The position numbers and the translations under genes are program-made. This document shows, piece by piece, positions 1,973-21,692 of a DNA stretch of 64,000 nt; position 1 is the stretch's first letter; each line of letters begins with the position of its first letter. The DNA lies in the IMG/VR virus record IMGVR_UViG_2872728642_000001, positions 1 to 64,000 of that record; one strand, given 5' to 3'. The notes under the pieces were generated by a model. It did not search any database. It was not told where the DNA came from and saw nothing but the letters and a program-made list of their open reading frames with translations. Source of the stretch: a virus. Its lineage: Duplodnaviria > Caudoviricetes.

Positions 1973-1992
1973 GAAGCGGAATCGCTTTTAGC
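1973..1992. promoter_or_regulatory. Dispersed 21-bp motif, copy 1
   Basis: GAAGCGGAATCGCTTTTAGC; contains the endolysin TAA stop. Confidence 0.6.
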
Positions 1993-2950
1993 GTTGGAAC
2001 ATAGCGATCTTGGCCATGGTCACCTTCTCGACCACCGCCGCGGCGTCGGTCGGGTTGATGATCCGCAGCCGGAGCTGGTGCTTGGTGTTGAGCGCGAACT
2101 GACCGCCCACGGACTGCTCCACCCGGCCGTTGGCGTCGGCGCGGAACGACAGCCGCCAGGCGTCGTCGTCGAACGTCTTGCCGTCCCGCGAGTAGCGCGA
2201 CCAGGCCACGTCGATCTCCGTGCCCGGCTTCAGGCCGCGGACCTTGACCAGGCCGTCCACGATGCACCAGCGAGACGCCTTGGCCAGGACCGCGACTCCG
2301 TCCGCGTTGTGGCCGGGCGGATCGTCCGCGTACTCCGTGTGCCAGCGCACCGCCAGCTCGCCGCTGGCCGGGACGTCCTGGTCCTCACCGGCCCCCAGAG
2401 AGATCACCTCGGGCACGTCTTCCTCCTGCTTGATGGGCGTTCCGGGGTTCTTGATCAGCGCAGTCACCTGCGACCGGAACGAGTTCATGTTGATCGAGTG
2501 GGGGTCCACCTTGCCGGTGTTGACCTCCTTGTGGCCCTTGATCCTGTCCGCCGACAGGCCGAACTCGCGGCACAGCTCGGCGCACAGCGCGTGATAGGCG
2601 TCGAGCTGCACCTGCGGCCACGGCATGCGGCCGTCGTTCTCGGCCTCGATGCCGATGCTCGTGGAGTTCATGTGGTGGGAGCTGGTGGACGGCGCATTGT
2701 GCCAGCACCGCCCGGCGGCGACGACCCAGATCCGGCCGGTGTGCTGCAGCCAGATGTGGCTGAGCGGCCCGTCCAGGCCCGGCCTGCCGTTCACCACGAC
2801 GTGCCGATCATTGAACCCGGCGGTGTGGTGGCACACGACTCCCTCTACGGAGCCCTGCGGCCCGTGGCCACGGGTCTTCCACCCGCCGACCTCCGTCACC
2901 GGGAAGCCGGTCTTCTGCGCGACCTCCGCGAGCTGCGTCAGCCATGGCAT
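1988..2950 (-). CDS. Endolysin, N-acetylmuramoyl-L-alanine amidase (Amidase_2-like) with C-terminal domain
   Basis: VVCHHTAG, WHNA, SIGIEAEN, GHKE and KVDP zinc-amidase motifs. Confidence 0.88.
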   Translation of the reverse strand: MPWLTQLAEVAQKTGFPVTEVGGWKTRGHGPQGSVEGVVCHHTAGFNDRHVVVNGRPGLDGPLSHIWLQHTGRIWVVAAGRCWHNAPSTSSHHMNSTSIGIEAENDGRMPWPQVQLDAYHALCAELCREFGLSADRIKGHKEVNTGKVDPHSINMNSFRSQVTALIKNPGTPIKQEEDVPEVISLGAGEDQDVPASGELAVRWHTEYADDPPGHNADGVAVLAKASRWCIVDGLVKVRGLKPGTEIDVAWSRYSRDGKTFDDDAWRLSFRADANGRVEQSVGGQFALNTKHQLRLRIINPTDAAAVVEKVTMAKIAMFQR

Positions 2951-2978
2951 GGCGTTCTCCTTGGTTGGTTGCGGCTGG

Positions 2979-3317
2979 TCAGCCGCGAGTGAGCTGGATG
3001 AGCGCGATCACCGCGCCCGCCACGGCAACCAGCACAGTTACGACGGCGATGATCTGCCTGGTTCGGTCCGCGAGCTGGGACCGTGTCACGGCCTCCCGCT
3101 CCACCGTGTCCAGACGGGCCTCCAACGCGGCGTACCGAAGCTCAGCCGCAGCGCGGTCCTGCTCAACCTGTCGCGCCAACTCGGCATGCCGGTCGTCCAC
3201 CTGGTCCAAGCGCTGAAGGATCAGCGCGGTGCTGCCGTTCGTACGCTCGAATCCCACCTCGACCAGGCGGCGCAGCGTCTCCAGCGCGAGTGCCAGGTTC
3301 GGCGACTCGTCGCTCAC
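2979..3317 (-). CDS. Coiled-coil protein with C-terminal transmembrane helix (lysis cassette)
   Basis: Heptad-rich body, C-terminal IIAVVTVLVAVAGAVIALI, GTGA overlap. Confidence 0.6.
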   Translation of the reverse strand: MSDESPNLALALETLRRLVEVGFERTNGSTALILQRLDQVDDRHAELARQVEQDRAAAELRYAALEARLDTVEREAVTRSQLADRTRQIIAVVTVLVAVAGAVIALIQLTRG

Positions 3318-3979
3318 GTCACCACCTCGTTGGGCTTCATGCCCACGAACGTGGCCGGAGGCTTAACGAAGAACGAGGGCCGAGCCGGGTCCTCCGACGT
3401 CGCCCGAACCCAGTCGAGGAACGCGCGCTTGCCCGCCACACGGACCGGGTCGATCCGCGTCAGCTCCTTGATCGGGGCCAGCGGATCCACGGGCGCGATA
3501 CGGGAGGAGCCAACGTACTCCAGCGCCCCCTGCCGGTCCGTCTGCGGAGCGGCGGTAATGAGAAGTCTGTGCCGCTTCACAGCAGCGATGCGCGCGAGGC
3601 ACGCCTGGCGGCGGGTCTCATCGGCGACCCCCGGCGTAAACACGCCCGGCAGGCCGTAGGTCTCCTGCAGCACGGCCAGCGCCGCCGGGTCGTCGTGCAC
3701 CAGGGCGTCATTGCGGCTGGGCACAGCCCCTTCGTGCAGGATCACGTCCAGCAGCGTGGCCACGTCGTCCGGATCAAGCCCGTTCTCGGCGGCCCGCCAC
3801 TCGAACGCGGAGTGTGGAAAAGCCTGTACACCGTCCTCGCCAGCGGCGTTGACCAGGTAGATGCCCCACAAGGGTTCCGCTGCCCCGTCAGGGCTCCCGT
3901 CCGCGGCCTCCGCGCCTGGGCGCATGTAGGTGTGGCTGTACGCGAGTTCGGCATCCCACGTGGTCATGATCTGCGGCAC
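3314..3979 (-). CDS. Tail-tip accessory protein, copy 2 (paralog of 6920-7390)
   Basis: Shares W.I.L, P..A.E, DV.LH, R.A.L.R...KR and LAP....RIDPV with 6920-7390. Confidence 0.6.
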   Translation of the reverse strand: MPQIMTTWDAELAYSHTYMRPGAEAADGSPDGAAEPLWGIYLVNAAGEDGVQAFPHSAFEWRAAENGLDPDDVATLLDVILHEGAVPSRNDALVHDDPAALAVLQETYGLPGVFTPGVADETRRQACLARIAAVKRHRLLITAAPQTDRQGALEYVGSSRIAPVDPLAPIKELTRIDPVRVAGKRAFLDWVRATSEDPARPSFFVKPPATFVGMKPNEVVT

Positions 3980-3991
3980 TGTGTCCCCTGT

Positions 3992-6778
3992 TCAGTGTCG
4001 ATGGCTCCAGAAGTAGTACGCCTTGCTCGTGGTGGTGCTGCTCTTGGCCGTGAATCCGGTGTCGGACGACGCGATCACGCACCAGTAGGCGTTCGGGTTG
4101 AACGACGAGCTGCCGCTGTTACCAGCGGCCCCGTCGCGCATGGTGCAAACCGGCCCCATGTTGGAGGCCATCGTGGCGCCGTAGGTGAACGCCGCGAACT
4201 GGCCGGACCCGAACGTCACCGAGCCGGCGAAGACGCCCGCGGTGTTGCCCTGCTGGGTGTAGTCCCACCACTTCCCGACGTGCCTGGTCCTGCCGCTGTT
4301 GTCGAACCAGAAGTACTGCTCTCGGGCGGCGTCCTTGAAGTAGCCGTAGCGGGCGTACCCCTCGGCGATCTCCATCAGGCCGCCGTTCGGTGAGGACAGC
4401 GAGGAGTCCTTCACCTGCATCGACAAGAACCCGGCGGCGACCACCGTGGACGACGCCGCGGTCCGGCCTTGGTTCGTGCCGGAGGTGATCTCGAACGTCG
4501 CCTCGCCCGGAAACCAATCGTCGTAGGTTGCCAGGCTCGTGTAATTCGTGCCGCTACTCGGGTAGAACCGCATCTCCGGCACCGACGCGCCAGGAGGCTG
4601 CAAGTCGATGCGGCGGCCGGTCGCTGAGGTCCTGATGTTCGAGCCCGTGATGGTCTTACCGTCGATGGCCGTGGCCGCCAACTTGTTCGCCGTGATCGCC
4701 CCAGCGGCAACGGTGCCCGCTGTCACCGCGTTGGCCGCAATATGCCCGGCCTGGATAGCTCCCGCTGCGATCTTGTCGGCCTCGACGGCGTTGGCCTGGA
4801 TGTGCCCGGCCTGGATCGCGGATGCCTGAATCAGCCGGCCGGTGATGGTGTTGGCTGTTATCTTCGCGTCGCCGGGGATCGTGCCGTCGATGATGTGCTC
4901 GGCACCGTCGATGATCGCGCCGATCAAGTCGGTGTCCACCAGCGGCTGTGTCGCGATCACGGCGTGCTCAGACTCGGCCGACTCGTTGCCGCTCCGGTCC
5001 AGCGCGGTGAACCAGAACTCTCGGTCCGCCCCGTACGGCTGGCCGGGCACCACCACCGACCCGGCCGCGTCCAAGTGCCCGACCACGGCTGCCCCGGGCG
5101 CGAGCGGGTCCTGCATCCAGACCCGCATCACCGAGAAGTCGGACGGCATCGGGACATCGCCGACGCCCCGGCCGTCCCAGCCCACGTGGATCACTCCGAG
5201 GCGTGTCGTGAGCTGCGGCTGCGTCGGGACCGGCGGCGGTATCGCGTCGTCCGGGATGAGCCGCACCACCTGGCCGGAGAAGTCGCCCTTCATCCCGGCC
5301 GACGTCGCCCGCACCTTGAAGGCGTACTCGGTGCCCACCACGAGCGGGGAGAACGTCGCCGTCGTCTCGTCGGTCACGGCGATCTGCATCCACAGCGACC
5401 CAGCGGTGTTGACCCGGGCGTACAGCTCGTAGCCGTCGATGGACAACGCGACGCCCGCGACGTCGGAGTTGACCGCCGCCCAGCTCGCCGTCACCTGGCC
5501 TCGGGCGAACCCGTTCTCGTCCAGGTAGGCGACCGGATCAACGACGAGACCCTGCGGCGCGGCCGGGGTCCGGTTGTTCGTCTCCGGAGCCGGCTCACCA
5601 CCAGAACCGCCCGACCCCACCCCGCCGTCGAGAATCCCGGCGGCTTGCCTGGCCAACCTGATCTCGCGCTCCAGGAAACGATCGTTCAAGACGACGTTGC
5701 CACCGGCCTGACCGTCCGTGTCCACCGACAGAGTGATCTGCCTCAGCCGAAGGGACTCCATCGCCCCGCCGTCGCCCGGCGCGAGCACATAGTCCCCCGG
5801 CTGGTAGTGCTCGAACGGCAGCCACCGCGCGCGGTCGAACATCAGGCCGCGGGTGACCTGCACCCGTTCGCGGGCGACCCGCTCCAGGGCGTTCTCGCCC
5901 AGCAGCCTCGCCGTGCCCACATCCGAGACGCCGCTCTGCGACTGGTAGGTCTCCCAGCGACCCCACGGTGCGACGGCGGCCTCGTTGGTCACCTCGACCG
6001 ACAGGCCAGCCTCGCCGCCAATCAAGATAGCTGACACGGCGTCTTCCAGCGTCCCCGTGTCCGGAGCTTCGGTGACGTCACGGCCAAGCCGCAGGTCAAC
6101 CGGTGCTGGGCCGGACGCGCGGTCCTTGCCGAGCACCGTGTCCGGGTTGAACACCTGCAGCTCGCGGCCCTGCATCCGCCAGTCGAGCACGCCCTGCTCG
6201 CCCAAGTTGATCAGGACGCTGAGCAGGTCCTTGCCCGGCTCGATCGCCAGCGTCAGCGCCTTCGCCCACGCCTTCCCATCGCTGTCCTGCGACAGAGAGA
6301 AGTTGAATTCCAGGTGAGTCAGCGCGCCGCGCGCCTTCCCCTCCTGGATGAACGTCGCCAGGATCTCGCCCGACGACACCGCGTTGAACTGGCGCTTGCC
6401 GTCCACCATCGCGCTGTTCGGGTACAGCACGACCTTTCGCAACATCCACGCCCAGCCCGGCAGATCGTACGACCGGGAACCGGTACGATCCGTGCTGTCG
6501 CCGCTCCTCTTGATCCGCAGGAACCTCGCGTTAGGCGGCTCAACCCACGAGCCGCCGTTGGCTGCGTACTCCACCGCGACTTCGCAATGCCCCGCGATGA
6601 GGTCCGCGTTCAACCCGCCGTCCGGGTAGGTCACCTTGAGGCTGGGCACGTCGTTCAGTGGGTCGCCCAGCTCGAACCCGCTGTGCTGCGGCAGCACACC
6701 CAGCCGACCACCGTTCGGCGCGTACGCCGCCAGCCGTAGCGCGAACTCCACGGGTTCACCCGAGATGATCACCTGCAC
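3992..6778 (-). CDS. Minor tail / tail-tip protein (Tal-like N-terminus plus fibronectin-III-like domains), copy 2
   Basis: 928 aa after Dit/TMP. PAAPQGL...V.ASW...GYELY...Y.FKVRA FN3-like region and ITA..I.A repeats. Confidence 0.8.
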   Translation of the reverse strand: MQVIISGEPVEFALRLAAYAPNGGRLGVLPQHSGFELGDPLNDVPSLKVTYPDGGLNADLIAGHCEVAVEYAANGGSWVEPPNARFLRIKRSGDSTDRTGSRSYDLPGWAWMLRKVVLYPNSAMVDGKRQFNAVSSGEILATFIQEGKARGALTHLEFNFSLSQDSDGKAWAKALTLAIEPGKDLLSVLINLGEQGVLDWRMQGRELQVFNPDTVLGKDRASGPAPVDLRLGRDVTEAPDTGTLEDAVSAILIGGEAGLSVEVTNEAAVAPWGRWETYQSQSGVSDVGTARLLGENALERVARERVQVTRGLMFDRARWLPFEHYQPGDYVLAPGDGGAMESLRLRQITLSVDTDGQAGGNVVLNDRFLEREIRLARQAAGILDGGVGSGGSGGEPAPETNNRTPAAPQGLVVDPVAYLDENGFARGQVTASWAAVNSDVAGVALSIDGYELYARVNTAGSLWMQIAVTDETTATFSPLVVGTEYAFKVRATSAGMKGDFSGQVVRLIPDDAIPPPVPTQPQLTTRLGVIHVGWDGRGVGDVPMPSDFSVMRVWMQDPLAPGAAVVGHLDAAGSVVVPGQPYGADREFWFTALDRSGNESAESEHAVIATQPLVDTDLIGAIIDGAEHIIDGTIPGDAKITANTITGRLIQASAIQAGHIQANAVEADKIAAGAIQAGHIAANAVTAGTVAAGAITANKLAATAIDGKTITGSNIRTSATGRRIDLQPPGASVPEMRFYPSSGTNYTSLATYDDWFPGEATFEITSGTNQGRTAASSTVVAAGFLSMQVKDSSLSSPNGGLMEIAEGYARYGYFKDAAREQYFWFDNSGRTRHVGKWWDYTQQGNTAGVFAGSVTFGSGQFAAFTYGATMASNMGPVCTMRDGAAGNSGSSSFNPNAYWCVIASSDTGFTAKSSTTTSKAYYFWSHRH

Positions 6779-6920
6779 TGCTGGTCCCTCTCAAGTCGTT
6801 GATCTCGTCGCGCTGCTGATCGACCGCCGCCGACAGCACGGCGTTCTCGTACGTCAGCTCCTCGATACGGCGGCGCAGCACGGCGATAATCCGGCCCGGC
6901 TCGACCACCAGGTCCTCCAT
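6756..6920 (-). CDS. Small coiled-coil protein (54 aa, not in the ORF track)
   Basis: MEDLVVEPGRIIAVLRRRIEELTYENAVLSAAVDQQRDEINDL...; TGATG coupling to the upstream gene. Confidence 0.6.
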   Translation of the reverse strand: MEDLVVEPGRIIAVLRRRIEELTYENAVLSAAVDQQRDEINDLRGTSSAGDHLG

Positions 6921-7390
6921 CACGTCCCCGCCAACAGGAGCGCCCGCTGCTGCTCCAGTCGCGTGGCCGCAGCCTTCACCGGGTCGATCCTCACCCCTCG
7001 CAGCGGCGCGAGCACGTCAGCCGCCTTCCGCGCGGCCGCCGTACGAGCCTTCAGCACGGCTGTCGTGACGGTCGCGTGGTCGCGCTTGCACCGCTCGACC
7101 CGCTCCAGCACGGCGGCGCGGGCCTGCTCGCCGCTGAGCTGCCACGGGTTCGTTTCGGGCAGGTTCGGCTCGTAGATCGGGTGGACCGCGCGGTGCATCA
7201 GCACGTCGATCGCCTCGTCCGTCGAGGCCAGCGCGCACGCCACGGCGGTGGACTCGATCGCCACCTTCGGCAGGAACAGCCCGACCGTGACCCCATCGGT
7301 GGCGCGGGTCAGCGTGATCTCCCACGCCTCGACCCGCCCCGACTCGTCGGCCGTGTCGGTCACCTCCGTGACCTGCCATTCGTCCGGCAC
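6920..7390 (-). CDS. Tail-tip accessory protein, copy 1
   Basis: 156 aa directly after tail-tip copy 1; paralog of 3314-3979. Confidence 0.6.
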   Translation of the reverse strand: MPDEWQVTEVTDTADESGRVEAWEITLTRATDGVTVGLFLPKVAIESTAVACALASTDEAIDVLMHRAVHPIYEPNLPETNPWQLSGEQARAAVLERVERCKRDHATVTTAVLKARTAAARKAADVLAPLRGVRIDPVKAAATRLEQQRALLLAGT

Positions 7391-7394
7391 CGCG

Positions 7395-10112
7395 TCACCT
7401 CCAGGCCCAAATGTGGAACGTCCGCGCCGACGGCGAGGTCCCGGCGGACGGATCGAAGAAGAACAGGTCGCTGTTGGTGCGGCTGAAGAGTTGCATGGTC
7501 GTGGTCTGCTCAGCCGTGAACGTGACCTTCGGCACGCTCGGAAAGGAGAAGCCGAGCGCCACCTGGTAGTAGGTGGCGCCCCTGGACACCGAGACCGACA
7601 GCATGATCAAGCCGGAGTCGTTGGCGTACAGCCACGTCCCCCGGTGGAACGTCCCGGACTGGTCGAACACGAGGAGCTGGTCCTGCTGGCTCGGGTGCAT
7701 CCACCCGATCGACGCCTGCCCCTCGACCGCCGACACCGCGCCGCCGCGCTGCTCACCGTTCGACGGGTTCAAGATGGCCGCCTGCCAGAAGCCAGCCGCG
7801 TGGACCAGACGGCACATCGCGGTGCTCGCCTGGTTGGTGCCCGACTCCATGACCAGCGTCGCCTCCCCGGCAAAACGGGAGCCGTCGCTGTAGATGCGCG
7901 ACTGATTGATCCCGCTGCCGGGGATGAACCGGATCTCCGGAGCTGCCGCGCCCGCAGGGTTGACCACGATCCGCGCGCCGGTCACCCCGGACGCGAGCTG
8001 ACCCACGATGGACACCGCGCCCGTGGCCGCCGAGATGCTGGCGGTCTGCTGGCCGGAGCCGTTGAACGCCACCAGGCCCGAGCTGTTGAGCTCGACCCGC
8101 GCACCGGACGCGCTGCCCGCGACGACCCGCGTGGACAACGTCAGCACCGCGGCGAGCTTGTCGGCCACCACCGCGCCGGCCGTGATGTGCTCGGCCTCGA
8201 CCGTCCCGGCGGCCAGCTTGTCGGCGGTGACCGCGTTCGCGGCCAACGCGCCCGTCGTGATGCTCTCGTTCGCGGCGTCACCCCGGACAAGCTGCACCGC
8301 GGCGATCGTCGCCGACGCGGACGGGGCCGACTCGTTGCCGGACCTGTCGATGGACGTGAACCGGAACTGCCGGTCCGCGCCGTACGGCAGGCCCGGGACG
8401 AGGATCGCCCCAGCCTCGCCCAGCACGCCGATTTCCGACCAGCCGGGCGCGAGCGGATCTTGCATCCACACGCGGACGTGCAGGAAGTCCGGCGGCATCG
8501 GCACCGCACCGACGCCGAGCCCGTCCCATGTGGCCCGGACCACGCCGAGCCGCGCGGAGAGCTGCGGAGCGGTGGGCACCGGCGGCGCTTCGTCGTCGTC
8601 AGGGATCGTCACCGCCACCGGTTCGGAGAAAGCCCCGACCTTGCCGAGGTTCACCGCCCTCACCTTGAAGGCGTACGCCTCGCCGATGACGAGCGGAGAG
8701 TACGTCGCCGTGGTGTCGCCCGCCTCGGTCGAGGTGACGAGGAACCACGGTGCGCCGGTCTCGTTGATCCGCATGAACAGCTCGTAGCCGCCCACGTTCA
8801 ACGCGACCCCGCCGACGTCGGAGGTGACCGCGCCCCACGAGACCGTCACCTGCCCGTGCGGCAGGCCGTGCTCGTCGATGTACGGGAGCGGGTTCACGAC
8901 CAGCCCGGCCGGGGCCGCCGGCGTGCGCGGCTCCGGCGCTTCCGGGGCCGGTCGCGCGCCGGACCCTCCGTCAGCGGTCGAACCACCGACGATACCGGCT
9001 GTCCGCCTGGCCAGCCGAATGTCCCGCTCCAGGAACCGGTCATGCAGCACCAGCGACCCGCCGAGCACGCCCGTCGAGCTGCGCGCCAACGTCACCTGCC
9101 GGACCCGCAACGACTCCAGCGCCCCACCGTCCCCCGGCGCGAGCACCCGGTCACCAGGCCGGTAGTCCTTCAGCGGCAGCCAGCGCGCCCCGTACAAAAC
9201 GACGCCGCGCGTGCGCTGCACCCGCTCGCCTCCGGCGCGCTCGAGCGCGGACTGCGCGAGGATCGTCGCAGTGCCCTCGTCGGAGACGCCGCCCGCGCCC
9301 ACGTACTGCTCCCAGGGGCCCCACGGTTGGACGGCGGCGGGGTTGGTGAACGTCTTGACGAGCCCGTTGTCCCCGACGATGAGGACCGACGACGCCGTGT
9401 CCTCCAGCGTGCCCTCGTCGGGCGCTTCGGCGACGTCGCGCCCGTACCGCAGGTCCACCGGGCTGGGCCCGGACGCCAGGTCGCGGCTCATCGCGGTGTC
9501 GGCGTTGAACACCTGGACGGTGCGGCCGGACGTGCGGAAGTCGCACACGCCCTGCTCGGCGAGGTTCTGCAGCGCCGTGAGCGCGTCCATGCCCGGCTGG
9601 TAGTAGATCGTGATGACCTTGTCCCACTCCTGACCCGCGCTGTCCTCGTCCGGGGTGAAGTCCCATTGCAGGAGCGGCACCGCGCCCCGGCCCTTGGCCT
9701 CCCCGATAAACGTCTGCAAGATCTCCCCTGCGGTCGCGCTGAGGAACGCCCTCTTGCCGTCCACCAGCGGCGCCGCACCGGGATGGAGCACGATCTTGCG
9801 GAGCATCCACACGAGGCCCGGCAGCTCGAACCTGGCCAGCCCAGTCGTATCGGAGGCGTCGCCGCGGCGCTTGATGCGCAGGAACCGCGAGTCCGACGCT
9901 TCGGTCCACACGGTGCCGTCCGTGCTCCACTCGGTGGCGATCTCGCACGGTTGGTCGAGCATAGCCGCGCCGGTCGCTGTGGTGGTGTAGGCGATCTTCA
10001 AGCTCGGCACGTCGTTGAGCGGCCAGCCGGTCTCGACCGACAGCGGATGCGGGAGCACGCCAAGGCGGTCGCCGAAAGGCGCATAGGCCACGAGCCGTAG
10101 ATCGAAGGTCAC
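7395..10112 (-). CDS. Minor tail / tail-tip protein (Tal-like plus FN3-like), copy 1
   Basis: 905 aa, GGAGG RBS, colinear with 3992-6778 (LRL.AYAP.G.RLGVLP...PLNDVPSLK). Confidence 0.8.
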   Translation of the reverse strand: MTFDLRLVAYAPFGDRLGVLPHPLSVETGWPLNDVPSLKIAYTTTATGAAMLDQPCEIATEWSTDGTVWTEASDSRFLRIKRRGDASDTTGLARFELPGLVWMLRKIVLHPGAAPLVDGKRAFLSATAGEILQTFIGEAKGRGAVPLLQWDFTPDEDSAGQEWDKVITIYYQPGMDALTALQNLAEQGVCDFRTSGRTVQVFNADTAMSRDLASGPSPVDLRYGRDVAEAPDEGTLEDTASSVLIVGDNGLVKTFTNPAAVQPWGPWEQYVGAGGVSDEGTATILAQSALERAGGERVQRTRGVVLYGARWLPLKDYRPGDRVLAPGDGGALESLRVRQVTLARSSTGVLGGSLVLHDRFLERDIRLARRTAGIVGGSTADGGSGARPAPEAPEPRTPAAPAGLVVNPLPYIDEHGLPHGQVTVSWGAVTSDVGGVALNVGGYELFMRINETGAPWFLVTSTEAGDTTATYSPLVIGEAYAFKVRAVNLGKVGAFSEPVAVTIPDDDEAPPVPTAPQLSARLGVVRATWDGLGVGAVPMPPDFLHVRVWMQDPLAPGWSEIGVLGEAGAILVPGLPYGADRQFRFTSIDRSGNESAPSASATIAAVQLVRGDAANESITTGALAANAVTADKLAAGTVEAEHITAGAVVADKLAAVLTLSTRVVAGSASGARVELNSSGLVAFNGSGQQTASISAATGAVSIVGQLASGVTGARIVVNPAGAAAPEIRFIPGSGINQSRIYSDGSRFAGEATLVMESGTNQASTAMCRLVHAAGFWQAAILNPSNGEQRGGAVSAVEGQASIGWMHPSQQDQLLVFDQSGTFHRGTWLYANDSGLIMLSVSVSRGATYYQVALGFSFPSVPKVTFTAEQTTTMQLFSRTNSDLFFFDPSAGTSPSARTFHIWAWR

Positions 10113-10135
10113 GCGCGACCTCCTCCTACGGAAGA

Positions 10136-10321
10136 ATGTGGAGCATTGTGATCGCTTTCACCTCACGGCCCCCGATCGACGTCCAAGTGACTCCGCGTGG
10201 CCGCATCATCATGCTCCCGGCCGTGTGGCCGCCGGAGCTCGACGCCGATGACATCGAGCTCCTGGTGCAACGGCTGATCGCCGCCGCCAAGCAGAGCCGG
10301 GCACAGACCGGTCAGAGGTAG
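10136..10321 (+). CDS. Possible small antisense ORF (61 aa)
   Basis: Fills the only ~200-bp gap of the tail operon; weak RBS. Confidence 0.35.
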   Translation: MWSIVIAFTSRPPIDVQVTPRGRIIMLPAVWPPELDADDIELLVQRLIAAAKQSRAQTGQR

Positions 10322-11181
10322 GCGCGACGCGCCCTGATCTCCACCTTGGACGGGGCGTCGGTGCTCGTCGCCGAGGTCGAAACCAGTACGGCGCGGCTGA
10401 ACGGATCGGCCACCGCGACGGACGACGTCAGGTGCAGCCACCGGAACTGCGAGCCAGGGCCGATCGCGTCGATCTCCCCCGTCACGTCATCCCCGGCGGC
10501 CAGGTCCCACGTGTCCGAGGTGACGACCGCGGCCCGCATCCGGCCACAGTCGATCAGCAGCCGCTGCCCCGCCAGCAGGCCACCTGGACGCAACACCCAG
10601 CCGCCCGTGGCGACGTCCCCGATGGACAGTTGCACGGCCGGGCCGGTGAACCGTAGCAGCGCGTCCACGATGGGCCCGGTCGCCCCCGCCAGCGTGGTCA
10701 CCGCCTGGGCGAGCTGATCGGGCGCGCCCGCCCAGGTGGACTCGGAGTCGTCCCGCCACAGCGCGCCCGGCACCTCGACCACGGCCGTGATGCGGGCGGT
10801 CGCGGCCCCGGTGTTGACCTCCGGTTCGCTGGCTGCGTTGATCGTCACGTCGGCGACGCGGACGAGGTTGCCCGCCTGGTAGCGCAACTTCATCAGCCGA
10901 TGCCGGGTGCCGAGAAGCGCCGACAGCGCCTCCAGGTTGCGCTCCATCTGCTCATAGCCGCCATCAGCCCCCGAAGGGGTGGCCGAGGTGACCTTGAACG
11001 TCAGGCCAAACGTGGTGGCCTCCAGGTCAAGGCCGACGACCGGGATGTCACCGTGCCGGCCCGGCACGCTGACTTTGACGGCCCGCGCGCCGGGCAACGG
11101 CCTGCGCTGCGTCCCCTTCTTGAGTCGCCAGCAGCCGGCCGGGTGGTCGAGCGGCACCCCGTCGAGTGAGTAGCTCGGCAC
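10312..11181 (-). CDS. Distal tail protein (Dit)-like
   Basis: 289 aa right after the TMP; VSVPGRHG motif typical of siphovirus Dit N-termini. Confidence 0.7.
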   Translation of the reverse strand: MPSYSLDGVPLDHPAGCWRLKKGTQRRPLPGARAVKVSVPGRHGDIPVVGLDLEATTFGLTFKVTSATPSGADGGYEQMERNLEALSALLGTRHRLMKLRYQAGNLVRVADVTINAASEPEVNTGAATARITAVVEVPGALWRDDSESTWAGAPDQLAQAVTTLAGATGPIVDALLRFTGPAVQLSIGDVATGGWVLRPGGLLAGQRLLIDCGRMRAAVVTSDTWDLAAGDDVTGEIDAIGPGSQFRWLHLTSSVAVADPFSRAVLVSTSATSTDAPSKVEIRARRAYL

Positions 11182-11182
11182 C

Positions 11183-13555
11183 TCAGATCACCCCCATCGC
11201 GCCCACGTACTGCAGGCTGCGGTTCACCGTCACCGACGTGGGTTCGGCCTGCGGGTAGTGATTCGTCACGTTCACCACCGTCCGCGACAAGGCGCGCCCA
11301 CCGCCGAGACCGTCCGGGACGGTCACGCCCGGCACCGACAGGTCCGGCATCGCCGTCCTCGTCGCGAGCCCGGCGACCTTCTTCAGCGAGGACACGACGA
11401 GCCCGCGGCCCTTGTCCACGCCGATCGACATGCCTTGCATCATGAAGGCTCCGATCTGGGCGAACACCTTCGACGGCGACTTGATGCCGAGGGCGTCCTT
11501 GGCGCTCTTGACGATGTTGGCGAAGAAGTTGCGGACGTTGTTGTACAGGCCGCTGGCCAGCGACTGGAGTTTGTTCCAGAAGCCGGAAACGACGTCCTGG
11601 GCGATGCCCGCCATGGTCGGACCTATGGAGGACACCGCGTTTTTGATCTTGCCTGGGAGCGCCGAGAACCAGCCGATGAGCTTCGTGCCGATCCACGTGC
11701 CGATGGCGGTGACCATGTCGGGGATGATCGAATTGCCGACGAGGATGTTGTACATCCAGCGGAAGATCGCGACTCCGGCCTCGATGGCAGGTTTGATCTG
11801 CGCGACGATCTGGGCCACCTTGGCGCCCATCTGCACGAAGGCGACTCCGAGCTGAGTCACGATCGGGATGACCGGGACGACCGCAGGCAGGATGTCCTTG
11901 ATCGCCATTACAAGCAAATCGGCCAAAAGCGGAATAAGCGGTTTGACGGCATTAATCAGTTCAATAAAGGCAGGAACTAGCCCATTTAGCAGCGACGGGG
12001 CGAGCTGCAGGATCGGCGGCAGCACGGATTGCACAATTGCGCCCGCAATTTGCCCAAAAGCTGCATAAACGGGCTGCATTGCAGGTCCGAGCAGGGCAAA
12101 AGCGGACGAAATGGACGCCAAGGCAGGCTGCAGGGCGCTCGAAAAAGCGCTGATCAGCGGACCGAGCGCAGCCGAGATGTTACTCAGCGCAATGCCAAGG
12201 ACCTGGCCCAGAATGCCCGCTAATTGCGCTACCGCTGGTAGCAGCGGAGCGACTGCAACGAGAGCTGCAGAGAGCCCCTGACCGAGCATGAGCAGCCCGG
12301 ACTGCAGCTCAGGGCTCGCGAACGCTTGTGCGAGCATCTGGGCGACCACGGTCAACCCAGGCCCCAGAGCGGCCAGAGCCGGCCCGAGCGCCGAGACCGC
12401 AGCGGCGAGCCCAGGACCCAGCGCCGTCGCGATGGACGCGATATGCGGCGCGACCAACGCCAACGCGCCGCCCAGTGCCTTGAAGATGGGCATCAGGGCT
12501 GAGCCGACCTGCGACAACGCCCCGAAGATCGCGACGAGCGCTTTCTGGCCCTCCGCGCTCGCCAGGAACTGGTTCAGTTGATCAAGAAGCTGCCCGAGCA
12601 CTCCGAGAGCGTTCGACCCGCCAGCGGACATCGCCGAAAAGACCGACTTGACGATGCCGACCAGGTCGCCGCCGACCTGCCCGAGCTGCTTGAACACGTC
12701 CAGCGCACCCTGCATCCAACTAAGTGCGGTACCGCTTTTAGCGGCGTTGGACAGGAACTCTCCGAACCGCTGAGCCGCAGCCGCGATACCGGGAACCAGT
12801 CCCGACGACCAAGACGCACCGACCACGGCGATGTCGCGAAACCCAGCCAGGAGTGGTTGGATCGCGGGCTGGATCGAGGCGACCGCCGATCGCAGCGAAC
12901 TGAAGATCGACGAGATCGCTGCCACCGTCGCCGACGACGAGGCGAACCGCGCCACCTCTGCGCCGGCGAGACCGAACTCTCTGGCCACGCCCTGCATGCC
13001 GGTCCGCAGCGGCCCGACCATCGCGTCTGCCACCGCCCGGATCTGGCCCGCGAGCGGCCGGAAGAAGGCGTCTTGGACGGCGCTCTTGAGACCGTCGATC
13101 GCGGGCTTGACCGAGTGCAGCTCGCGGGCGGCTGCCTGCGCCGCAGGTGAGAGCCCTGCCAGGCTCTCCTCGAACTTTTTCGGATCATCGCCAAGGGCTG
13201 CGCCGAAGGCGTCGCCCACGTCGGCCAAAGCCACCTTGAGGACAGCCATCGCGCCGACACCGAGCGCGATCATGCCCGGAAGGGCAGCGACAATGCCGCC
13301 TGCCGGGGCCAGCGCTGCGACCAGACCGACCGCGCTCTGCGCCGCCGCAGCCATCGACGCCGCCAGGGTGGCCGCCTTCAGCGCCGCGCCGGTGAACTCG
13401 ACGCCCATCGACCCGGCGCGCTTGGCGACCGCGCCCACGTCGATGTCGATCTTCTTCGCGGCGTCGCGCATGAAGGTCATGAACCGGCGGACAACGGTCG
13501 CGCCCCGGTCCTTCACGTTGATCTCAGCGAACAGTTCGCCGACATTCAGCGCCAC
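11183..13555 (-). CDS. Tape measure protein
   Basis: 790 aa, Ala/Gly/Leu-rich amphipathic repeats, MALNVGELFAEI start, C-terminal LGIKSPSKVF. Confidence 0.9.
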   Translation of the reverse strand: MALNVGELFAEINVKDRGATVVRRFMTFMRDAAKKIDIDVGAVAKRAGSMGVEFTGAALKAATLAASMAAAAQSAVGLVAALAPAGGIVAALPGMIALGVGAMAVLKVALADVGDAFGAALGDDPKKFEESLAGLSPAAQAAARELHSVKPAIDGLKSAVQDAFFRPLAGQIRAVADAMVGPLRTGMQGVAREFGLAGAEVARFASSSATVAAISSIFSSLRSAVASIQPAIQPLLAGFRDIAVVGASWSSGLVPGIAAAAQRFGEFLSNAAKSGTALSWMQGALDVFKQLGQVGGDLVGIVKSVFSAMSAGGSNALGVLGQLLDQLNQFLASAEGQKALVAIFGALSQVGSALMPIFKALGGALALVAPHIASIATALGPGLAAAVSALGPALAALGPGLTVVAQMLAQAFASPELQSGLLMLGQGLSAALVAVAPLLPAVAQLAGILGQVLGIALSNISAALGPLISAFSSALQPALASISSAFALLGPAMQPVYAAFGQIAGAIVQSVLPPILQLAPSLLNGLVPAFIELINAVKPLIPLLADLLVMAIKDILPAVVPVIPIVTQLGVAFVQMGAKVAQIVAQIKPAIEAGVAIFRWMYNILVGNSIIPDMVTAIGTWIGTKLIGWFSALPGKIKNAVSSIGPTMAGIAQDVVSGFWNKLQSLASGLYNNVRNFFANIVKSAKDALGIKSPSKVFAQIGAFMMQGMSIGVDKGRGLVVSSLKKVAGLATRTAMPDLSVPGVTVPDGLGGGRALSRTVVNVTNHYPQAEPTSVTVNRSLQYVGAMGVI
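12722..12742. promoter_or_regulatory. Dispersed 21-bp motif, copy 2 (inside the TMP gene)
   Basis: AAGTGCGGTACCGCTTTTAGC; forces AT-rich codons GCT AAA AGC GGT ACC GCA CTT. Confidence 0.6.
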
Positions 13556-13623
13556 CGGGATTCACCTCCTGGAGTCTCGGGCGGGTGAAGCCGCGGCGGG
13601 AAAACACATGTCGAAGGCCCGCC

Positions 13624-14312
13624 TCACTGCCGCCCCTCGCCCGGGTCGAGGGCGCAGGCCAAACGCGAGTCACACGTCAGCAGCCCGTGCAGCCGCGTCC
13701 GCAGCCACCGCCACGAGCGGGTGCGCAGCACGCCGGGCTCGCCGAGGTCGATGCCGTACACCTCATGCAGGTCGGGCTCGACGAGCGCCCAGCGCGTCAG
13801 GATGTCTTGCCACGAGACGGTGCGGCCTTTCGAGACCGAGAAGCCGTCGTCTTCGTAGTAGTCACGGATCCCCGAGACCGGGTCGATGTCGCCGCCGCTG
13901 CCGTCGCCCGGCGCGTCGCCCGATTCGGGGCCTGGGCTTCCCCCGAGCCGCCCGAGGCCCAGATCTTCGCGGCGGCGTCCTTACCGGCGGCGACCCACAC
14001 CAGCGCGGTCGCGCCGACGTGCTGGATGCGAGGCCACTTCACCTTGTCGGCGTGCAGCTCGTCCCACACCGGCCCGAGGATGCGCTGGTACAGGTCGCGC
14101 TCCTCGTCGTCGTTGAGCACGACTTCAACCAGCTCGTTGAGCTTGGGGTCATCCACCGTGTCGCCCTGCTCAGCGGCCAGGCTGGCGTTCATGAGCCGCT
14201 GGCACAGCAGACCGACCTCAGCGTCGGGAGGCGGGACGACGTACCACTTCCCGCCCACCGGGAGCGGCAAGGTGTCGTCAAAGAACTCGTCGAGGTCCTG
14301 GAACTGGGTCAC
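13624..14312 (-). CDS. Tail assembly chaperone, long form via -1 frameshift
   Basis: The -1 frame after the GGGGGAA slippery site is open to the TGA at 13624 and encodes WQDIL..W..VE.DLH..YGIDL...RSWRWLR. Confidence 0.8.
13797..14312 (-). CDS. Tail assembly chaperone, short form
   Basis: GTGA overlap with the tail tube stop; lies between tube and TMP. Confidence 0.8.
   Translation of the reverse strand: MTQFQDLDEFFDDTLPLPVGGKWYVVPPPDAEVGLLCQRLMNASLAAEQGDTVDDPKLNELVEVVLNDDEERDLYQRILGPVWDELHADKVKWPRIQHVGATALVWVAAGKDAAAKIWASGGSGEAQAPNRATRRATAAAATSTRSRGSVTTTKTTASRSRKAAPSRGKTS
13938..13944 (-). other. Programmed -1 ribosomal frameshift site G GGG GAA
   Basis: TTCCCCC on the + strand; canonical tail-chaperone position. 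Confidence 0.75.
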
Positions 14313-14785
14313 GGGGTGACCACCGGGTTCTCGATCTCGACCGGCTCGCCCTGGCCCAGCAGAGTGAACGAGAACGGCTCCAGGTCGGTCACGCTGCCGC
14401 CCTTGACGAACTCGGAGACGGTGCAGACGCCTTCGTAGGCGTCGGGAGCGCCGTCCCTGCGGTACCACCTGACCTTGATGTTCGCGCCGAAGCCAACCTT
14501 GCGGGCCGCCTTCCGGATGGCCTCCTGCCCCGGGTCGGGTGTGAACACTGCGGCGTCGGTCCGCTTCCTCCGTCCCTCGGCCTCGATCTGCCAGGTCCGG
14601 CCGGTCACGACGGAGCTGCCCCAGCCTTCCTCGTCGTCGAAGTCGCCGTCGTCCTCCGTGTTGTCGTCGGTGGTCTCTTGGAAGGACGTCAAGCCCTTGA
14701 CCGACGTCCAGATGGGGTTCTCGAAGTCGGGCCCTGTATTGACGTCGAGCTTCCAGTCCTTCGCGAGCAGGGAACGCAGGCCCAT
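14309..14785 (-). CDS. Major tail (tube) protein
   Basis: AAGGAG RBS; acidic loop (DDGDFDDEEGW), W.I..EG.R, and F.FTL.GQG.P at the C-terminus. Confidence 0.8.
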   Translation of the reverse strand: MGLRSLLAKDWKLDVNTGPDFENPIWTSVKGLTSFQETTDDNTEDDGDFDDEEGWGSSVVTGRTWQIEAEGRRKRTDAAVFTPDPGQEAIRKAARKVGFGANIKVRWYRRDGAPDAYEGVCTVSEFVKGGSVTDLEPFSFTLLGQGEPVEIENPVVTP

Positions 14786-14815
14786 GATCACTCCTTGAAA
14801 GGGCATGCTGGAACA

Positions 14816-14837
14816 CTGAAAGCGGGACCGCTTTCAG
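14816..14837. promoter_or_regulatory. Dispersed motif, copy 3
   Basis: CTGAAAGCGG-GA-CCGCTTTCAG palindrome upstream of the tail tube gene. Confidence 0.7.
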
Positions 14838-14854
14838 CAGGGAAAGGGGAGAGG

Positions 14855-15301
14855 TCAGGCGTCGCGGTGCGGCGACGGCCGGTGGCACATCAGGTCGAAA
14901 GAGTCGGCCCGTTCCCACCGGCCCGAGCTGTCGCGGCCGAGCGGCGCGACCAGCGTCCGCCGCGCGAGCAGCACCTGAACGCCGGTCGAGAGCATCACGT
15001 TGGCCAGGCCGTGGATCGCGTCGAACACGCCGTCCGCCAGGTCGTCCACAACCCGCGGGTCCGTCTTCGCCCGGAACCGGGCCTGCATCTGCACGGCCGA
15101 GTCCGGCTGCTCAACGTCGTCGCCCATCTGGCCCACGCCGTACACCGCGAGCGCGATGGCCGTGTCCGGGGATGCCGGGAGACCACCGATCGTGAGCGCC
15201 GTCTGGTTGGCCGTGTAGATCCCGTTGGGATTCCACGTCGCCACACCGGCCTCGCCTAGCAGGACGGCAAACCCGGTCAGCAGATCACGAGTCCAGGTCA
15301 C
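14855..15301 (-). CDS. Tail terminator / minor capsid-3-like protein
   Basis: 148 aa in the head-tail joining block; VQMQARFR and GRWERADSF motifs. Confidence 0.7.
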   Translation of the reverse strand: MTWTRDLLTGFAVLLGEAGVATWNPNGIYTANQTALTIGGLPASPDTAIALAVYGVGQMGDDVEQPDSAVQMQARFRAKTDPRVVDDLADGVFDAIHGLANVMLSTGVQVLLARRTLVAPLGRDSSGRWERADSFDLMCHRPSPHRDA

Positions 15302-15651
15302 TTGAGCACCTGCCGGATCTGCTTGGCGATCAGCAACCTGACCACCTCGCGCTCCTCACGCACCGCGAGTTCCAAGAACTTCGCGGTCCGGCCGGGCTTG
15401 TGCTTGTAGTCGAGGTTTTCGTGCTGCGGCACCGCATACGAGCCGTCGTAGGAGACGACGCTACGCAGTTCATTCTCATCGACAACGGCCGCACCCGACC
15501 GCTCCAGCGTGCCCTCGTCATGCGGGACACGCTGATTGGACACCGACAGAACATGCTCGGTGGCATGACGGAGGCCGCGCCCGGCCGCGCGCCGGATCTC
15601 AGCCGTGATCTCCTCCGCGTTGACCTTGGCGTTGAATCTGGCTCTGGCCAT
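15298..15651 (-). CDS. Neck / tail-completion protein (HK97 gp10-like)
   Basis: VP.DEGTLERS, Y...YA..QHE.L.Y.H and AKFLE motifs. Confidence 0.75.
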   Translation of the reverse strand: MARARFNAKVNAEEITAEIRRAAGRGLRHATEHVLSVSNQRVPHDEGTLERSGAAVVDENELRSVVSYDGSYAVPQHENLDYKHKPGRTAKFLELAVREEREVVRLLIAKQIRQVLK

Positions 15652-15962
15652 CAGCGGCACACCACCTCAACGTGGTCCGGCGTCGGCAATCCGCCGCCGT
15701 CGCGGGCAAAACTCGTGATGACTGTGGTCTGCCGCCCGTTGACGGTGACCCTGCTCCCCTCCGGGCAGGTCGTGCCTGGAGGGAAGAACACGGTCGTATC
15801 GCTGACGACCTCGGCTCCCTGTGCGTCCCGCACCAGGCGCCGCTCGTCGTCCACGAGGCAGCGGGACTCGAACGGCTCCCCGTACACCGGCCCGTAGGCC
15901 CCGTCTCCCTGGAACGGCTCGATGATCGCCTTGTGGCGCAGCAGCCACTCGGGCAGCATCAC
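15651..15962 (-). CDS. Head closure protein
   Basis: G.GAYG..YG..F...C.VDD..RLVR...G.EVVS pattern; translationally coupled. Confidence 0.7.
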   Translation of the reverse strand: MMLPEWLLRHKAIIEPFQGDGAYGPVYGEPFESRCLVDDERRLVRDAQGAEVVSDTTVFFPPGTTCPEGSRVTVNGRQTTVITSFARDGGGLPTPDHVEVVCR

Positions 15963-16348
15963 CACACGCTCCCGTCGAGGATGTAGCCGGGTAGCAGCCC
16001 CGCCCGCTGCAGGATCGACGAGGCGTCCGGCGAGTACCGAGGAGGCGGCGCGTCCCCGGAGCCGCCACGCTCCAGCCGGACCGATCCGATCGCGACCCGG
16101 CCGAAGGCGGCGGCAACGCCGAACTCATCGCCCACGGCGACCGTCCACGCGACCTGCGCGCACGTCGCCCGCTTGATCGCCTCGATGTCCTCCGGCCTTG
16201 TGGGCATGCCCGCGTCGTCGGTCGGGTAGATCGAGGCGAACAGCATCTCGTCGATCCGCTCGCTCGCGCGCTCCAGCCGCCGGTCGATGTCGTCAGGCGC
16301 GGCCTTGCCGCTGTATGCCGTGAAGTCGGCAGCCGTCGCGTATGCCAT
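15959..16348 (-). CDS. Head-tail adaptor
   Basis: YAT..D, L.RASE.ID, ATCAQV and AIGSV motifs. Confidence 0.75.
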   Translation of the reverse strand: MAYATAADFTAYSGKAAPDDIDRRLERASERIDEMLFASIYPTDDAGMPTRPEDIEAIKRATCAQVAWTVAVGDEFGVAAAFGRVAIGSVRLERGGSGDAPPPRYSPDASSILQRAGLLPGYILDGSVW

Positions 16349-16351
16349 GGG

Positions 16352-16693
16352 CTACGCCGGCTGCTCGATCACACCGACCGTCAGCCCTGCCGGGGCCGCA
16401 TAGTCGATGTACACCTTGCCGTTGGCCTGCCGGTAGACGGCACTGAACGGCGGCAGCAGCAGGGAATCGTTCGCCGGGACGGCGACCGGCAGGTCCACCA
16501 CGTCCTGACCTTCGACCGTCGCAGGGATCTGCACGGTCACCGCTGCGGGCGCGCCGTTGCTGTTCTTGAGCAGCAGCATGCGCCGCGCGGTGTGGTCGAA
16601 GGCGTTGCCATCCGCGTTGGCCGCGACCAGGCCAGCGCCGAGCGCTACGCCGGTACGCGGCATGGGCCGGACGACCAGATCAGTCCTCGCCAT
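16352..16693 (-). CDS. Putative capsid decoration / virion protein
   Basis: 113-aa beta-rich protein downstream of the capsid gene. Confidence 0.5.
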   Translation of the reverse strand: MARTDLVVRPMPRTGVALGAGLVAANADGNAFDHTARRMLLLKNSNGAPAAVTVQIPATVEGQDVVDLPVAVPANDSLLLPPFSAVYRQANGKVYIDYAAPAGLTVGVIEQPA

Positions 16694-16964
16694 CTGGGGC
16701 CTCCCCGAATTCCTCGATCAGCGCGGCCTTCGACAACGCCTTGGCGTCGCTCTCGGGCATGCCGCGCGAGACCGCGTACTCGACCCACGCGGCCTTGTTG
16801 TCGTGCTCAGATGGGCGGGCCGGCCCGGCCGAAGCCGGACCGGACGCGTCGGCGGGCTCAGGCCCGCCGATGATCCGCCAGTTGTCCAACATGTCCAGGC
16901 AGGGGTCTCGCTGTTCGAGCGGAACCACCTGCCCGGTGTTGGCGTTGCGGTAGACGTAGGTCAC
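16680..16964 (-). CDS. Small head-region protein
   Basis: 94 aa, NKAAWVEYA...KAALIE helical motif, GTGA overlap with the capsid gene. Confidence 0.55.
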   Translation of the reverse strand: MTYVYRNANTGQVVPLEQRDPCLDMLDNWRIIGGPEPADASGPASAGPARPSEHDNKAAWVEYAVSRGMPESDAKALSKAALIEEFGEAPDGED

Positions 16965-17899: not shown

Positions 17900-17924
17900 T
17901 CGGGCCTTTCACCTCTTCAGGAAG

Positions 17925-17946
17925 CTAAAAGCGGTGCCGCTTCTAG
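17925..17946. promoter_or_regulatory. Dispersed motif, copy 4
   Basis: CTAAAAGCGG-TG-CCGCTTCTAG upstream of the capsid gene. Confidence 0.7.
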
Positions 17947-17949
17947 TGA

Positions 17950-18711: not shown

Positions 18712-18786
18712 GACGAGATCGCCCTCCTGGAGCGTGTCGTCGGAACATGGGAAAGGCCCGCGCCTGGCGAGCCCGAGAATGCGCGT

Positions 18787-21680: not shown

Positions 21681-21692
21681 CGGCCACCCTCC

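Follow-up and report, generated by a model that had tools for sequence, protein, structure and literature searches.

Siphovirus tails normally carry one Tal, phages of this type normally have one gene for it, and textbook gene maps likewise show one central hub (Tal) gene. The Tal hub nucleates siphophage tail assembly, and there is a single three-fold site for it per tail. The DNA analyzed here (the window, a stretch of 64,000 nucleotides of IMG/VR record IMGVR_UViG_2872728642_000001) belongs to a siphovirus-type prophage whose host is the soil actinomycete Nonomuraea, and its tail-tip region codes for two such proteins. How could one phage use two hubs? The first-pass annotation of this DNA had reported a tandemly duplicated tail-tip module, and its four open reading frames were confirmed at their positions, all on the minus strand. 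We refer to the two Tal proteins as A and B and to the small genes downstream of them as a and b. On the minus strand the gene order is tape measure, Dit-like, A, a, a 54-aa ORF, B, b, a 112-aa membrane protein and endolysin:

11183..13555, minus strand: tape measure protein, 790 aa, which starts the tail-tip gene run (PHROG tape-measure families, best E 3.8e-69)
10312..11181, minus strand: putative Dit-like distal tail protein, 289 aa (position and size)
7395..10112, minus strand: Tal A, 905 aa (hub fold model, FN3 and central-fibre matches, orthologue dN/dS)
8968..10112, minus strand: hub (gp27-like) N-terminal domain of A, the part of A whose fold was modelled
6920..7390, minus strand: partner gene a, 156 aa, paralog of b (hhalign of family profiles)
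6756..6920, minus strand: small conserved coiled-coil ORF, 54 aa (conservation across loci)
3992..6778, minus strand: Tal B, 928 aa (identity to A, kept hub residues, dN/dS, tip model)
3314..3979, minus strand: partner gene b, 221 aa, paralog of a (sequence and profile match to a)
2979..3317, minus strand: 112-aa coiled-coil protein with a C-terminal membrane helix (PHROG 5225, function unknown)
1988..2950, minus strand: endolysin (Amidase_2), which ends the tail module (Pfam PF01510, E 2.9e-22; PHROG endolysin)

The Dit-like gene lies directly after the tape measure gene. Searches of Pfam, PHROG, NCBIfam and PDB sequences gave no match for its 289-aa product; orthologues of 287-297 aa occupy the same position in all related loci, and their length is equal in loci with tandem and with single Tal genes. 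The 54-aa ORF, which the first-pass annotation had missed, lies between a and B. Its ATG overlaps the stop codon of a by one base, and at its other end 23 nt are shared with the start of B, so that it couples a to B. It is present in 13 other loci from several genera (48-86% identity), always just upstream of B, and was not found in loci having only B; it belongs to the unit formed by A, a and the small ORF itself. Between the A unit and the B unit the genes overlap tightly and a terminator is absent; judged from the sequence, the tail-tip genes are translationally coupled. The 112-aa gene, which is not homologous to the 54-aa ORF (hhalign probability 0.2%), sits between the tip genes and the endolysin gene and also follows the single Tal of an outgroup locus (L034). 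It is probably a member of the lysis cassette, outside the duplicated unit.

The proposal that both large proteins are of the Tal type is supported. In A, a hub (residues 1-380) is followed by two FN3 domains (~400-605) and then by a fibre stalk rich in alanine (~610-710); the C-terminal tip is variable. When residues 1-381 were modelled with AF2 (pLDDT 93.3), they displayed a complete gp27-like baseplate hub/Tal fold, with VIA Z scores of 19-22 over residues 1-370 (22.4 to 9h4p_BD, 21.9 to 8zdo_s, 20.9 to 9d93_Oa and 20.8 to 6v8i_AE) and Foldseek matches to phage hub/Tal chains at E values from 6e-18 to 1e-12. The location of the gene downstream of tape measure and Dit is likewise that of a Tal/gp27-like hub. 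B has the same architecture but is extended by 9 residues at the N-terminus, has a longer stalk and ends in a different tip. Its hub domain is 56% identical to that of A, and the conserved residues at 51 hub-family sites are kept to 96.7% in the A clade and to 97.3% in the B clade. We infer from this identity and from the kept residues that B, too, is a hub-plus-fibre protein. Searches of Pfam, PHROG and NCBIfam revealed no catalytic or lytic domain in A or B, the matches being to FN3 and tail-fibre families only, and therefore the 'lysin' part of the family name does not apply to either copy. A lysin domain is carried by only some Tal proteins and is not required by the structural family.

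A and B are paralogs: they align from the first residues and are 50% identical over 862 columns (E = 0). Mean identity is 0.5-0.6 up to about residue 650, the divergence being evenly spread along the hub, and falls to 0.10-0.27 across the last ~150 residues. The earlier description of divergence lying mainly in the last ~150 aa is thus roughly right, except that divergence already begins near residue 650. At the DNA level the two genes are about 70% identical, with dS of about 0.8. Both units are intact and in direct orientation, as described before. Both copies are under purifying selection (dN/dS 0.14-0.39). Among orthologues of A, dN/dS is 0.14-0.35 over the whole length, tip included; for B it is 0.31-0.39 overall and 0.13-0.21 in the hub. 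These values contradict relaxed selection on one copy, which the first-pass annotation had named as a way in which its proposal could fail.

The small downstream genes, also claimed to be paralogous, share only 28% identity when the two sequences are compared directly (E 8e-7). The profiles of the a-family and b-family orthologues match with 98.4% probability in hhalign (E 7.4e-15, 131 columns), and on this ground a and b are true paralogs. Each lies just downstream of a fibre gene, as expected of a tail-fibre assembly chaperone or a tip-bound partner. The tips of both A and B are hypervariable among orthologues, and the partner genes vary with them. The identity of a follows that of the A tip across loci, and a is missing where A is reduced to the hub. 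Similarly, b is present in loci with a well-matching B-type tip, including those having only B, and was not found in loci whose B carries a different distal part. Where the B tip is replaced, b is replaced with it, and the hub of B stays 82-92% identical; dS in the distal part of B is ~1.4-2.8 times that of the hub, which also points to tip replacement. No family match was found for a in Pfam, PHROG or NCBIfam, and neither a nor b matched any named chaperone family in the family-database searches. Homologues of b are all annotated as 'hypothetical', and a Pfam YCII match to b is below threshold. Each partner gene may act for the tip that it accompanies, by helping it to fold or assemble or by binding to it as a subunit; the co-variation of partners and tips gives indirect support, and no more, to the matched chaperones suggested in the first-pass annotation. 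As for the tip itself, the model of B residues 690-928 (pLDDT 83.6) shows a beta-meander region followed by a small terminal beta-sandwich. The end of B may resemble the H-type-lectin-like knobs of tailspikes and R-pyocin fibres with middling scores (VIA Z 7-8.6): for the last ~80 residues, Z is 8.2 to 7eea_A (rmsd 2.0, 67 residues), 7.4 to 4ru4_A, 7.1 to 2ccv and 7.0-7.1 to 6cl6/6cu2, all of them middling, and the Foldseek E values of the tip model are all at or above 2e-3.

The A/B pair extends well beyond this genome. Usually as the full cassette of five genes, it occurs in Nonomuraea prophages and in those of at least seven further genera of the family. The tandem pair was found in 11 other Nonomuraea loci. 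Of 300 genomes sampled across the family, 14 matched, and 8 of these have the pair in tandem, seven of the eight belonging to other genera; runs of locus tags in public annotations are consistent with five adjacent genes. In phylogenetic trees A and B form separate, well-supported clades (support 100/99 for A and 100/100 for B; 100/98 for the A side in a second tree), and the two subtrees are alike, which indicates co-inheritance. The pair stems from one old event. The duplicated tail-tip module is real, but it is an ancient, family-wide architecture and not a duplication local to this genome. The related claim, that the duplicated unit is a Tal gene plus its partner, is supported by single-copy outgroups, although the unit ahead of B consists of three genes (A, a and the small coiled-coil ORF). 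Single-Tal relatives have tape measure, Dit and one Tal, followed in two of the three outgroups by one partner of ~200 aa; that of L036 gives weak matches to the a family.

The two copies differ in how they are retained. B is present in every locus examined and loci with B only exist, whereas no A-only locus was seen among them. The B-only prophages fall both at the base of and within the B clade, and their Dit is of the same size. In four loci A is reduced to a hub-only gene of about 385 aa. The hub-only form evolves faster (branch length 0.71-0.73) and keeps 87.7% of conserved hub sites compared with 97%, yet it is still under purifying selection (dN/dS 0.23). The junction between Dit and A is loose and a hotspot for inserted genes, while in single-Tal loci Dit abuts Tal. 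B may be viewed as the putative resident Tal, with A, a and the small ORF as an add-on that could be lost or reduced to the hub. The natural variants of the cassette comprise B-only loci, hub-only A and swapped tips; its genes are adjacent and few in number, and the host bacteria are non-pathogenic. Among isolated phages, none of the 35 records matching A has a second hub-bearing copy; one record matched A at two places, in the FN3/stalk region only. Our literature search found no paper describing tandem Tal paralogs.

How might two hubs work? The reading that we tentatively favor, without giving it an even chance, is that A and B form alternative homotrimeric tips. A hub trimer would nucleate the tail on the C-terminus of the tape measure protein and the Dit ring, a site available once per tail, and A3 and B3 would compete for it. 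One burst would then hold two kinds of virions, whose central fibres end in different receptor-binding tips, and host range would be spread constitutively, without a switch. Competition between A3 and B3 is suggested because the hub residues are kept in both, the divergence along the hub is even, and Dit has the same size as in single-Tal relatives. Two observations sit uneasily with simple alternative tips. A hub-only A would give fibreless tails, which looks costly; such a gene is easier to reconcile with an A hub that has a structural role next to B. Furthermore, the model gives the conserved small coiled-coil ORF no role.

Both observations would be accommodated if A and B were present in every tail, as a mixed A/B hub or as a second hub trimer below or beside the first, an arrangement that we consider somewhat unlikely. 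The retention of an intact hub-only A under purifying selection beside full-length B in four loci suggests a fibre-independent structural job for the A hub, and a linker function is conceivable for the conserved 54-aa coiled-coil ORF that goes with the A unit. There are also partial precedents. The lactococcal 936-group phage Phi4.2 has two adjacent, related adhesion genes, whose products were both detected in its baseplate as dual RBPs (PMC6315561). Those duplicated proteins, however, are peripheral RBPs with many docking sites, whereas here it is the central hub, with a single three-fold site, that is duplicated. A hetero-hexamer of paralogous Dit-like proteins has been predicted in ceduoviruses (PMC12474359). 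On the other hand, B-only prophages with a same-sized Dit imply that B builds a tip without A, and in tandem loci neither Dit nor the hubs show an extra docking domain. The folds of the fibre stalk and spike look trimeric, which disfavors mixed trimers with different or missing C-termini, and no solved tail among the matches listed is described as having two stacked gp27-like hubs, as judged from the entry titles and from what is known of these structures. If A and B did share a tail, every virion would bear two kinds of receptor-binding tips, a siphophage tail-tip arrangement without solved precedent; this would explain both the hub-only A beside full B and the small coiled-coil gene that always accompanies the A unit.

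It is less probable still that B alone is the working virion Tal and that A, a and the small ORF are kept for another role, for example as a spare recombination cassette, as a lysogen-made hub-like protein interfering with related phages, or as an assembly factor. The asymmetry described above agrees with such a division: B is universal among the loci examined and A is not, A has been cut to a faster-evolving hub in some lineages, and the Dit-A junction is loose. Against it, full-length A is under clear purifying selection along its whole length, tip included, A stands first in its late operon and is preceded by a strong ribosome-binding site, and a co-varies with the A tip, as would be expected for a working receptor-binding fibre.

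Finally, it is highly improbable that the pair reflects an assembly artefact, as the first-pass annotation had named for a second way to fail, that it is a duplication of recent date nearing collapse, or that it acts as a recombination or inversion switch between tips. The sole point in favor is that two similar genes stand in direct tandem, while the same arrangement and clade split recur across many independent assemblies, single-contig genomes included, dS between A and B is about 0.8, and positions 3300-10200 have neither meaningful inverted repeats, such as flank Gin/Cin-type switches, nor long identical DNA (best direct repeats 71-72% identical). A recombination-based switch, one of the options raised in the first-pass annotation, is further disfavored by the stability of the arrangement across genera.

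Comparison with known systems puts the unusual feature into perspective. Tal stands for tail-associated lysin/tip, and examples from siphophages of Gram-positive bacteria are 80alpha gp59 (6v8i), SPP1 gp21 and TP901-1 Tal. Like A and B, they follow tape measure and Dit and have a C-terminal extension that makes the central fibre, and gp59 shares the gp27-like hub fold of the N-terminal ~380 residues of A (VIA Z 20.8). These phages have one Tal gene, as do the solved structures matched by the A hub in general, whereas the Nonomuraea prophage has a pair of paralogs that are each accompanied by a partner. Mycobacteriophages Douge (8zdo, gp18) and Bxb1 (9d93), also phages of actinobacterial hosts, are among the best matches of the A hub (Z 21.9 and 20.9, respectively). 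Douge makes its hub and its central fibre as two distinct proteins, and extra BppU proteins surround its Dit (PMC13033339); in the Nonomuraea prophage one protein combines hub and fibre, and this fusion protein is encoded twice in full. Single-Tal relatives are the Streptomyces BE-cluster phages, which have one copy of an A/B homologue (Frankenweenie gp69, Satis gp62; 29-31% identity), and the metagenomic or prophage loci L034-L036, whose one Tal has a hub 54-59% identical to those of A and B. All of them share the order tape measure, Dit, Tal, small genes and lysis. Two or more alternative receptor-binding tips per phage genome are likewise found with the Mu G segment/Gin, the P1 C segment/Cin and the BPP-1 DGR. 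Those phages switch by invertase or reverse transcriptase; in the Nonomuraea prophage, by contrast, there are no inverted repeats around the genes, and both copies are intact, point the same way and are coupled within a single operon.

A prophage lineage spanning Nonomuraea and at least seven other genera has long kept two diverged, selected hub copies with matched partners. If A and B are alternatives, such phages would release two host specificities per infection without a switch, and would do so at the level of the hub, not of side fibres. If they are co-assembled, this would be a new tail-tip architecture. Either outcome bears on the evolution of host range and on how tail assembly picks its initiator.

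The genome around the window measures 13.8 Mb at 68% G+C, and the public proteins nearest to those of the window come nearly all from Nonomuraea and other Streptosporangiaceae. Pfam and PHROG matches define a siphovirus late module on the minus strand. The features considered here, in minus-strand order, are:

within 2,000-22,000, minus: portal, minor capsid protein and P22-type coat protein
within 2,000-22,000, minus: tail terminator, major tail protein and DUF7426 chaperone region
late module, minus: tape measure protein, 790 aa
10312-11181, minus: 289-aa gene without family match at the Dit position (Dit-like gene)
7395-10112, minus: A, first Tal-type hub-fibre gene, 905 aa
6920-7390, minus: a, partner gene of A, 156 aa
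6756-6920, minus: small coiled-coil ORF, 54 aa
3992-6778, minus: B, second Tal-type hub-fibre gene, 928 aa
3314-3979, minus: b, partner gene of B, 221 aa
2979-3317, minus: 112-aa protein (long coiled coil, C-terminal membrane helix)
immediately downstream of the 112-aa gene, minus: Amidase_2 endolysin

Sequence searches alone do not reveal the nature of A and B: Pfam gave only weak FN3 matches, PHROGs returned 'tail protein' and 'central tail fiber J' families, and PDB searches with either sequence found FN3 domains only, to which a profile search added central-fibre proteins from phage T1 and from F2 pyocin. The hub domain became recognizable only once its structure was predicted. The AlphaFold2 model of A residues 1-381, built from an alignment with 55 diverse relatives (mean pLDDT 93.3), matches phage baseplate hub/Tal chains along its entire length, with Foldseek E-values as low as 6e-18. 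The VIA Z-scores are 22.4 for the HFTV1 chain 9h4p_BD, 21.9 for the Douge chain 8zdo_s (which we take to be the baseplate hub protein), 20.9 for the Bxb1 tail-tip chain 9d93_Oa, 20.8 for the 80alpha chain 6v8i_AE (presumably Tal) and 19-20 for Mu gp44 and Listeria gp18. The hub is followed by two FN3 domains and an Ala-rich stalk, which the profile search places beside the T1 and F2 pyocin fibres. The model of B residues 690-928 (pLDDT 83.6) comprises a beta-meander region and a terminal beta-sandwich of ~80 residues; judging by middling structural matches (Z 7-8.6, Foldseek E of at least 2e-3), this sandwich may resemble the lectin-type knobs that end tailspikes and R-pyocin fibres. No lytic domain was found in A or B.

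An exhaustive search recovered 1,281 representative clusters holding the hub domain. In many distant relatives (hub proteins P0074, P0131, P0142, P0147, P0148 and others) the hub begins 300-600 residues into a protein of 1,300-1,700 aa, and one of these long proteins carries a PG_binding_1 domain. Such proteins may be fusions of Dit and Tal, or hubs preceded by a wall-binding or lytic module.

The duplication of tail-tip genes in tandem, noticed in the first-pass annotation, was confirmed. Aligned from their N-termini, A and B share 50% identity over 862 residues (56% between the hubs). Across 19 orthologues the fraction of identical residues lies at 0.5-0.6 as far as about residue 650 and at 0.10-0.27 in the last ~150 residues. 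The partners a and b, proposed to be paralogs as well, share only 28% identity as single sequences, while their orthologue profiles match with 98.4% probability (hhalign, E 7.4e-15). Apart from a sub-threshold YCII match, neither matches a family in Pfam, PHROG or NCBIfam, and ESM Atlas returned nothing usable for b. Both copies are intact and in the same orientation. At the DNA level A and B are ~70% identical, and positions 3300-10200 contain no meaningful inverted repeats and no long identical tracts.

The 54-aa ORF between a and B was absent from the first-pass gene list. Its ATG shares one base with the stop codon of a, its 3' end overlaps the start of B, and it is kept in 13 other loci. 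That it is the remnant of a second copy of the 112-aa gene was rejected (hhalign probability 0.2%, despite one pairwise match with E 0.04). Neither a regulatory RNA (fold z-score 0.31) nor a terminator was found in the a-to-B spacer, which is this coding ORF. The 112-aa gene itself is kept in nearly all related loci and has a homologue after the single Tal of an outgroup locus (L034); its product is probably a membrane protein of the lysis cassette rather than a tail protein.

The tandem pair recurs in 11 other Nonomuraea prophages among 60 related genomes searched. In a sample of 300 genomes of the same family the hub occurs in 14, eight of which have the pair, seven of these eight being in other genera. 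The order Dit, gap, A, a, small ORF, B, b, 112-aa gene, lysin is complete in most fetched loci, and locus-tag runs in public annotations are compatible with five adjacent genes. These comparative data, together with ~70% DNA identity lacking long identical tracts, contradict an assembly artefact.

In maximum-likelihood hub trees the first copies form one group (support 100/99 in one tree, 100/98 in the tree that includes in-family single-copy loci). The second copies form one group (100/100) in the tree with distant outgroups, where A and B are sisters with moderate support (89/76). The similarity of the A and B subtrees indicates joint inheritance. Addition of in-family single-copy loci yields three groups, namely A, B with loci L038-L040, and the other singles. 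The pair may have arisen by duplication in place, with A later lost from some lineages, or equally by insertion of a related cassette. The nearest outgroups (P0125, P0126 and P0129) come from single-Tal loci, two of the three having one ~200-aa partner before the lysis genes; in BLAST the a family is weakly matched by the partner in L036 and not at all by that in L035. A single homologue lies directly after Dit in Streptomyces BE-cluster phages and in two metagenomic phages. Among 35 isolated-phage records matching A we found no second hub-bearing copy; one record matched A at two places, in the FN3/stalk region only.

Relaxed selection on one copy, raised as a possibility at first pass, does not agree with dN/dS between orthologues, which is low for both A (0.14-0.35) and B (0.31-0.39) and is 0.13-0.28 for either hub. 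Tips are the most variable part in both clades, and dS in the distal part of B is roughly 1.4-2.8 times that of the hub. Compared with the window, two related loci (L020 and L024) show 82-92% identity in the B hub, 43-49% in the B tip and 48-53% in b, indicating that tip and partner were replaced together by recombination. In L024 (G028:C5, 6752-9510) the A orthologue consists of two overlapping ORFs split at about residue 442, through either a frameshift or a sequencing error; B, a and b are intact there.

The two units are not equivalent. In three prophages of the family the sole Tal is of B type, carries a B-type tip and comes with b, and Dit abuts it; B-only Tals lie at the base of, or within, the B group (99/95). 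No A-only locus was found among the loci examined. In four loci A is a hub-only gene of ~385 aa without a, on a long branch and still under purifying selection (dN/dS 0.23, one pair). The 51 family-conserved hub positions are retained at 97.3% in the B clade, 96.7% in A, 98.2% in single-copy relatives and 87.7% in hub-only A. A is full-length in locus L027, which lacks a, and b was not found where B has a different distal part. In L030 (G010:C39) and L041 (G152:C75) a hub-only A stands beside a B that stops after the first FN3 domains, and behind this B lie separate ORFs that resemble FN3 and stalk regions; the fibre here may be divided among several genes, or may be broken.

Between Dit and A the spacing is loose (170-1,650 bp), and this junction is a hotspot for gene insertion, with different genes inserted in different loci. 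In the window the 200-bp gap holds an opposite-strand ORF of 61 aa (10136-10321, plus), without a Pfam match, conserved at 86% in L024 and 75% in L026 and partly kept in L021. The gaps of 600-1,650 bp in other relatives contain signal-peptide proteins (L022, L024), a 325-aa reverse-strand ORF (L021), a 181-189-aa forward ORF (L025, L027) or a membrane protein (L028). The window's own genome also carries a second, degraded cassette (L031, G000:C2:3929000-3947000), in which the A-like gene (7919-10602) is interrupted by a TAG stop near its 5' end and the B-like gene retains only its first ~70 codons (start ~11494-11730). This cassette and two short hub fragments (G000:C1:74849-75315 and C2:3227547-3227887) are remnants of related prophages.

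Tal-type hub-fibre proteins are already known; the tandem paralogous arrangement appears undescribed, as our literature searches for tandem or paralogous Tal/hub genes turned up no description of it. The two nearest precedents are the dual peripheral receptor-binding proteins of lactococcal phage Phi4.2 (PMC6315561), unlike the doubled hub-fibre protein here, and, in ceduoviruses, the hetero-hexamer predicted for paralogous Dit-like proteins (PMC12474359). In mycobacteriophage Douge hub and central fibre are separate, each a single-copy protein (PMC13033339).

The window thus encodes two hub-fibre genes, both intact, in the same orientation and translationally coupled, each with a matched partner; the arrangement is old and selected. 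In the simplest reading, which we favor tentatively, there would be one hub site per tail, and A3 and B3 would compete for the same initiator complex; the conserved hub residues in both A and B, the evenly spread divergence and the unchanged size of Dit are in line with it. Co-assembly of A and B in one tail would better fit the retained hub-only A genes and the small coiled-coil gene, and we consider it the less probable of the two. A non-virion role of the A unit is more doubtful still. The paralogous hub-fibre genes and partners of the first-pass interpretation stand; its recombination-based switch, like an artefact, is highly improbable given the repeat search and the comparative data. If A3 and B3 do compete for one initiator complex, two virion types would be released per burst.
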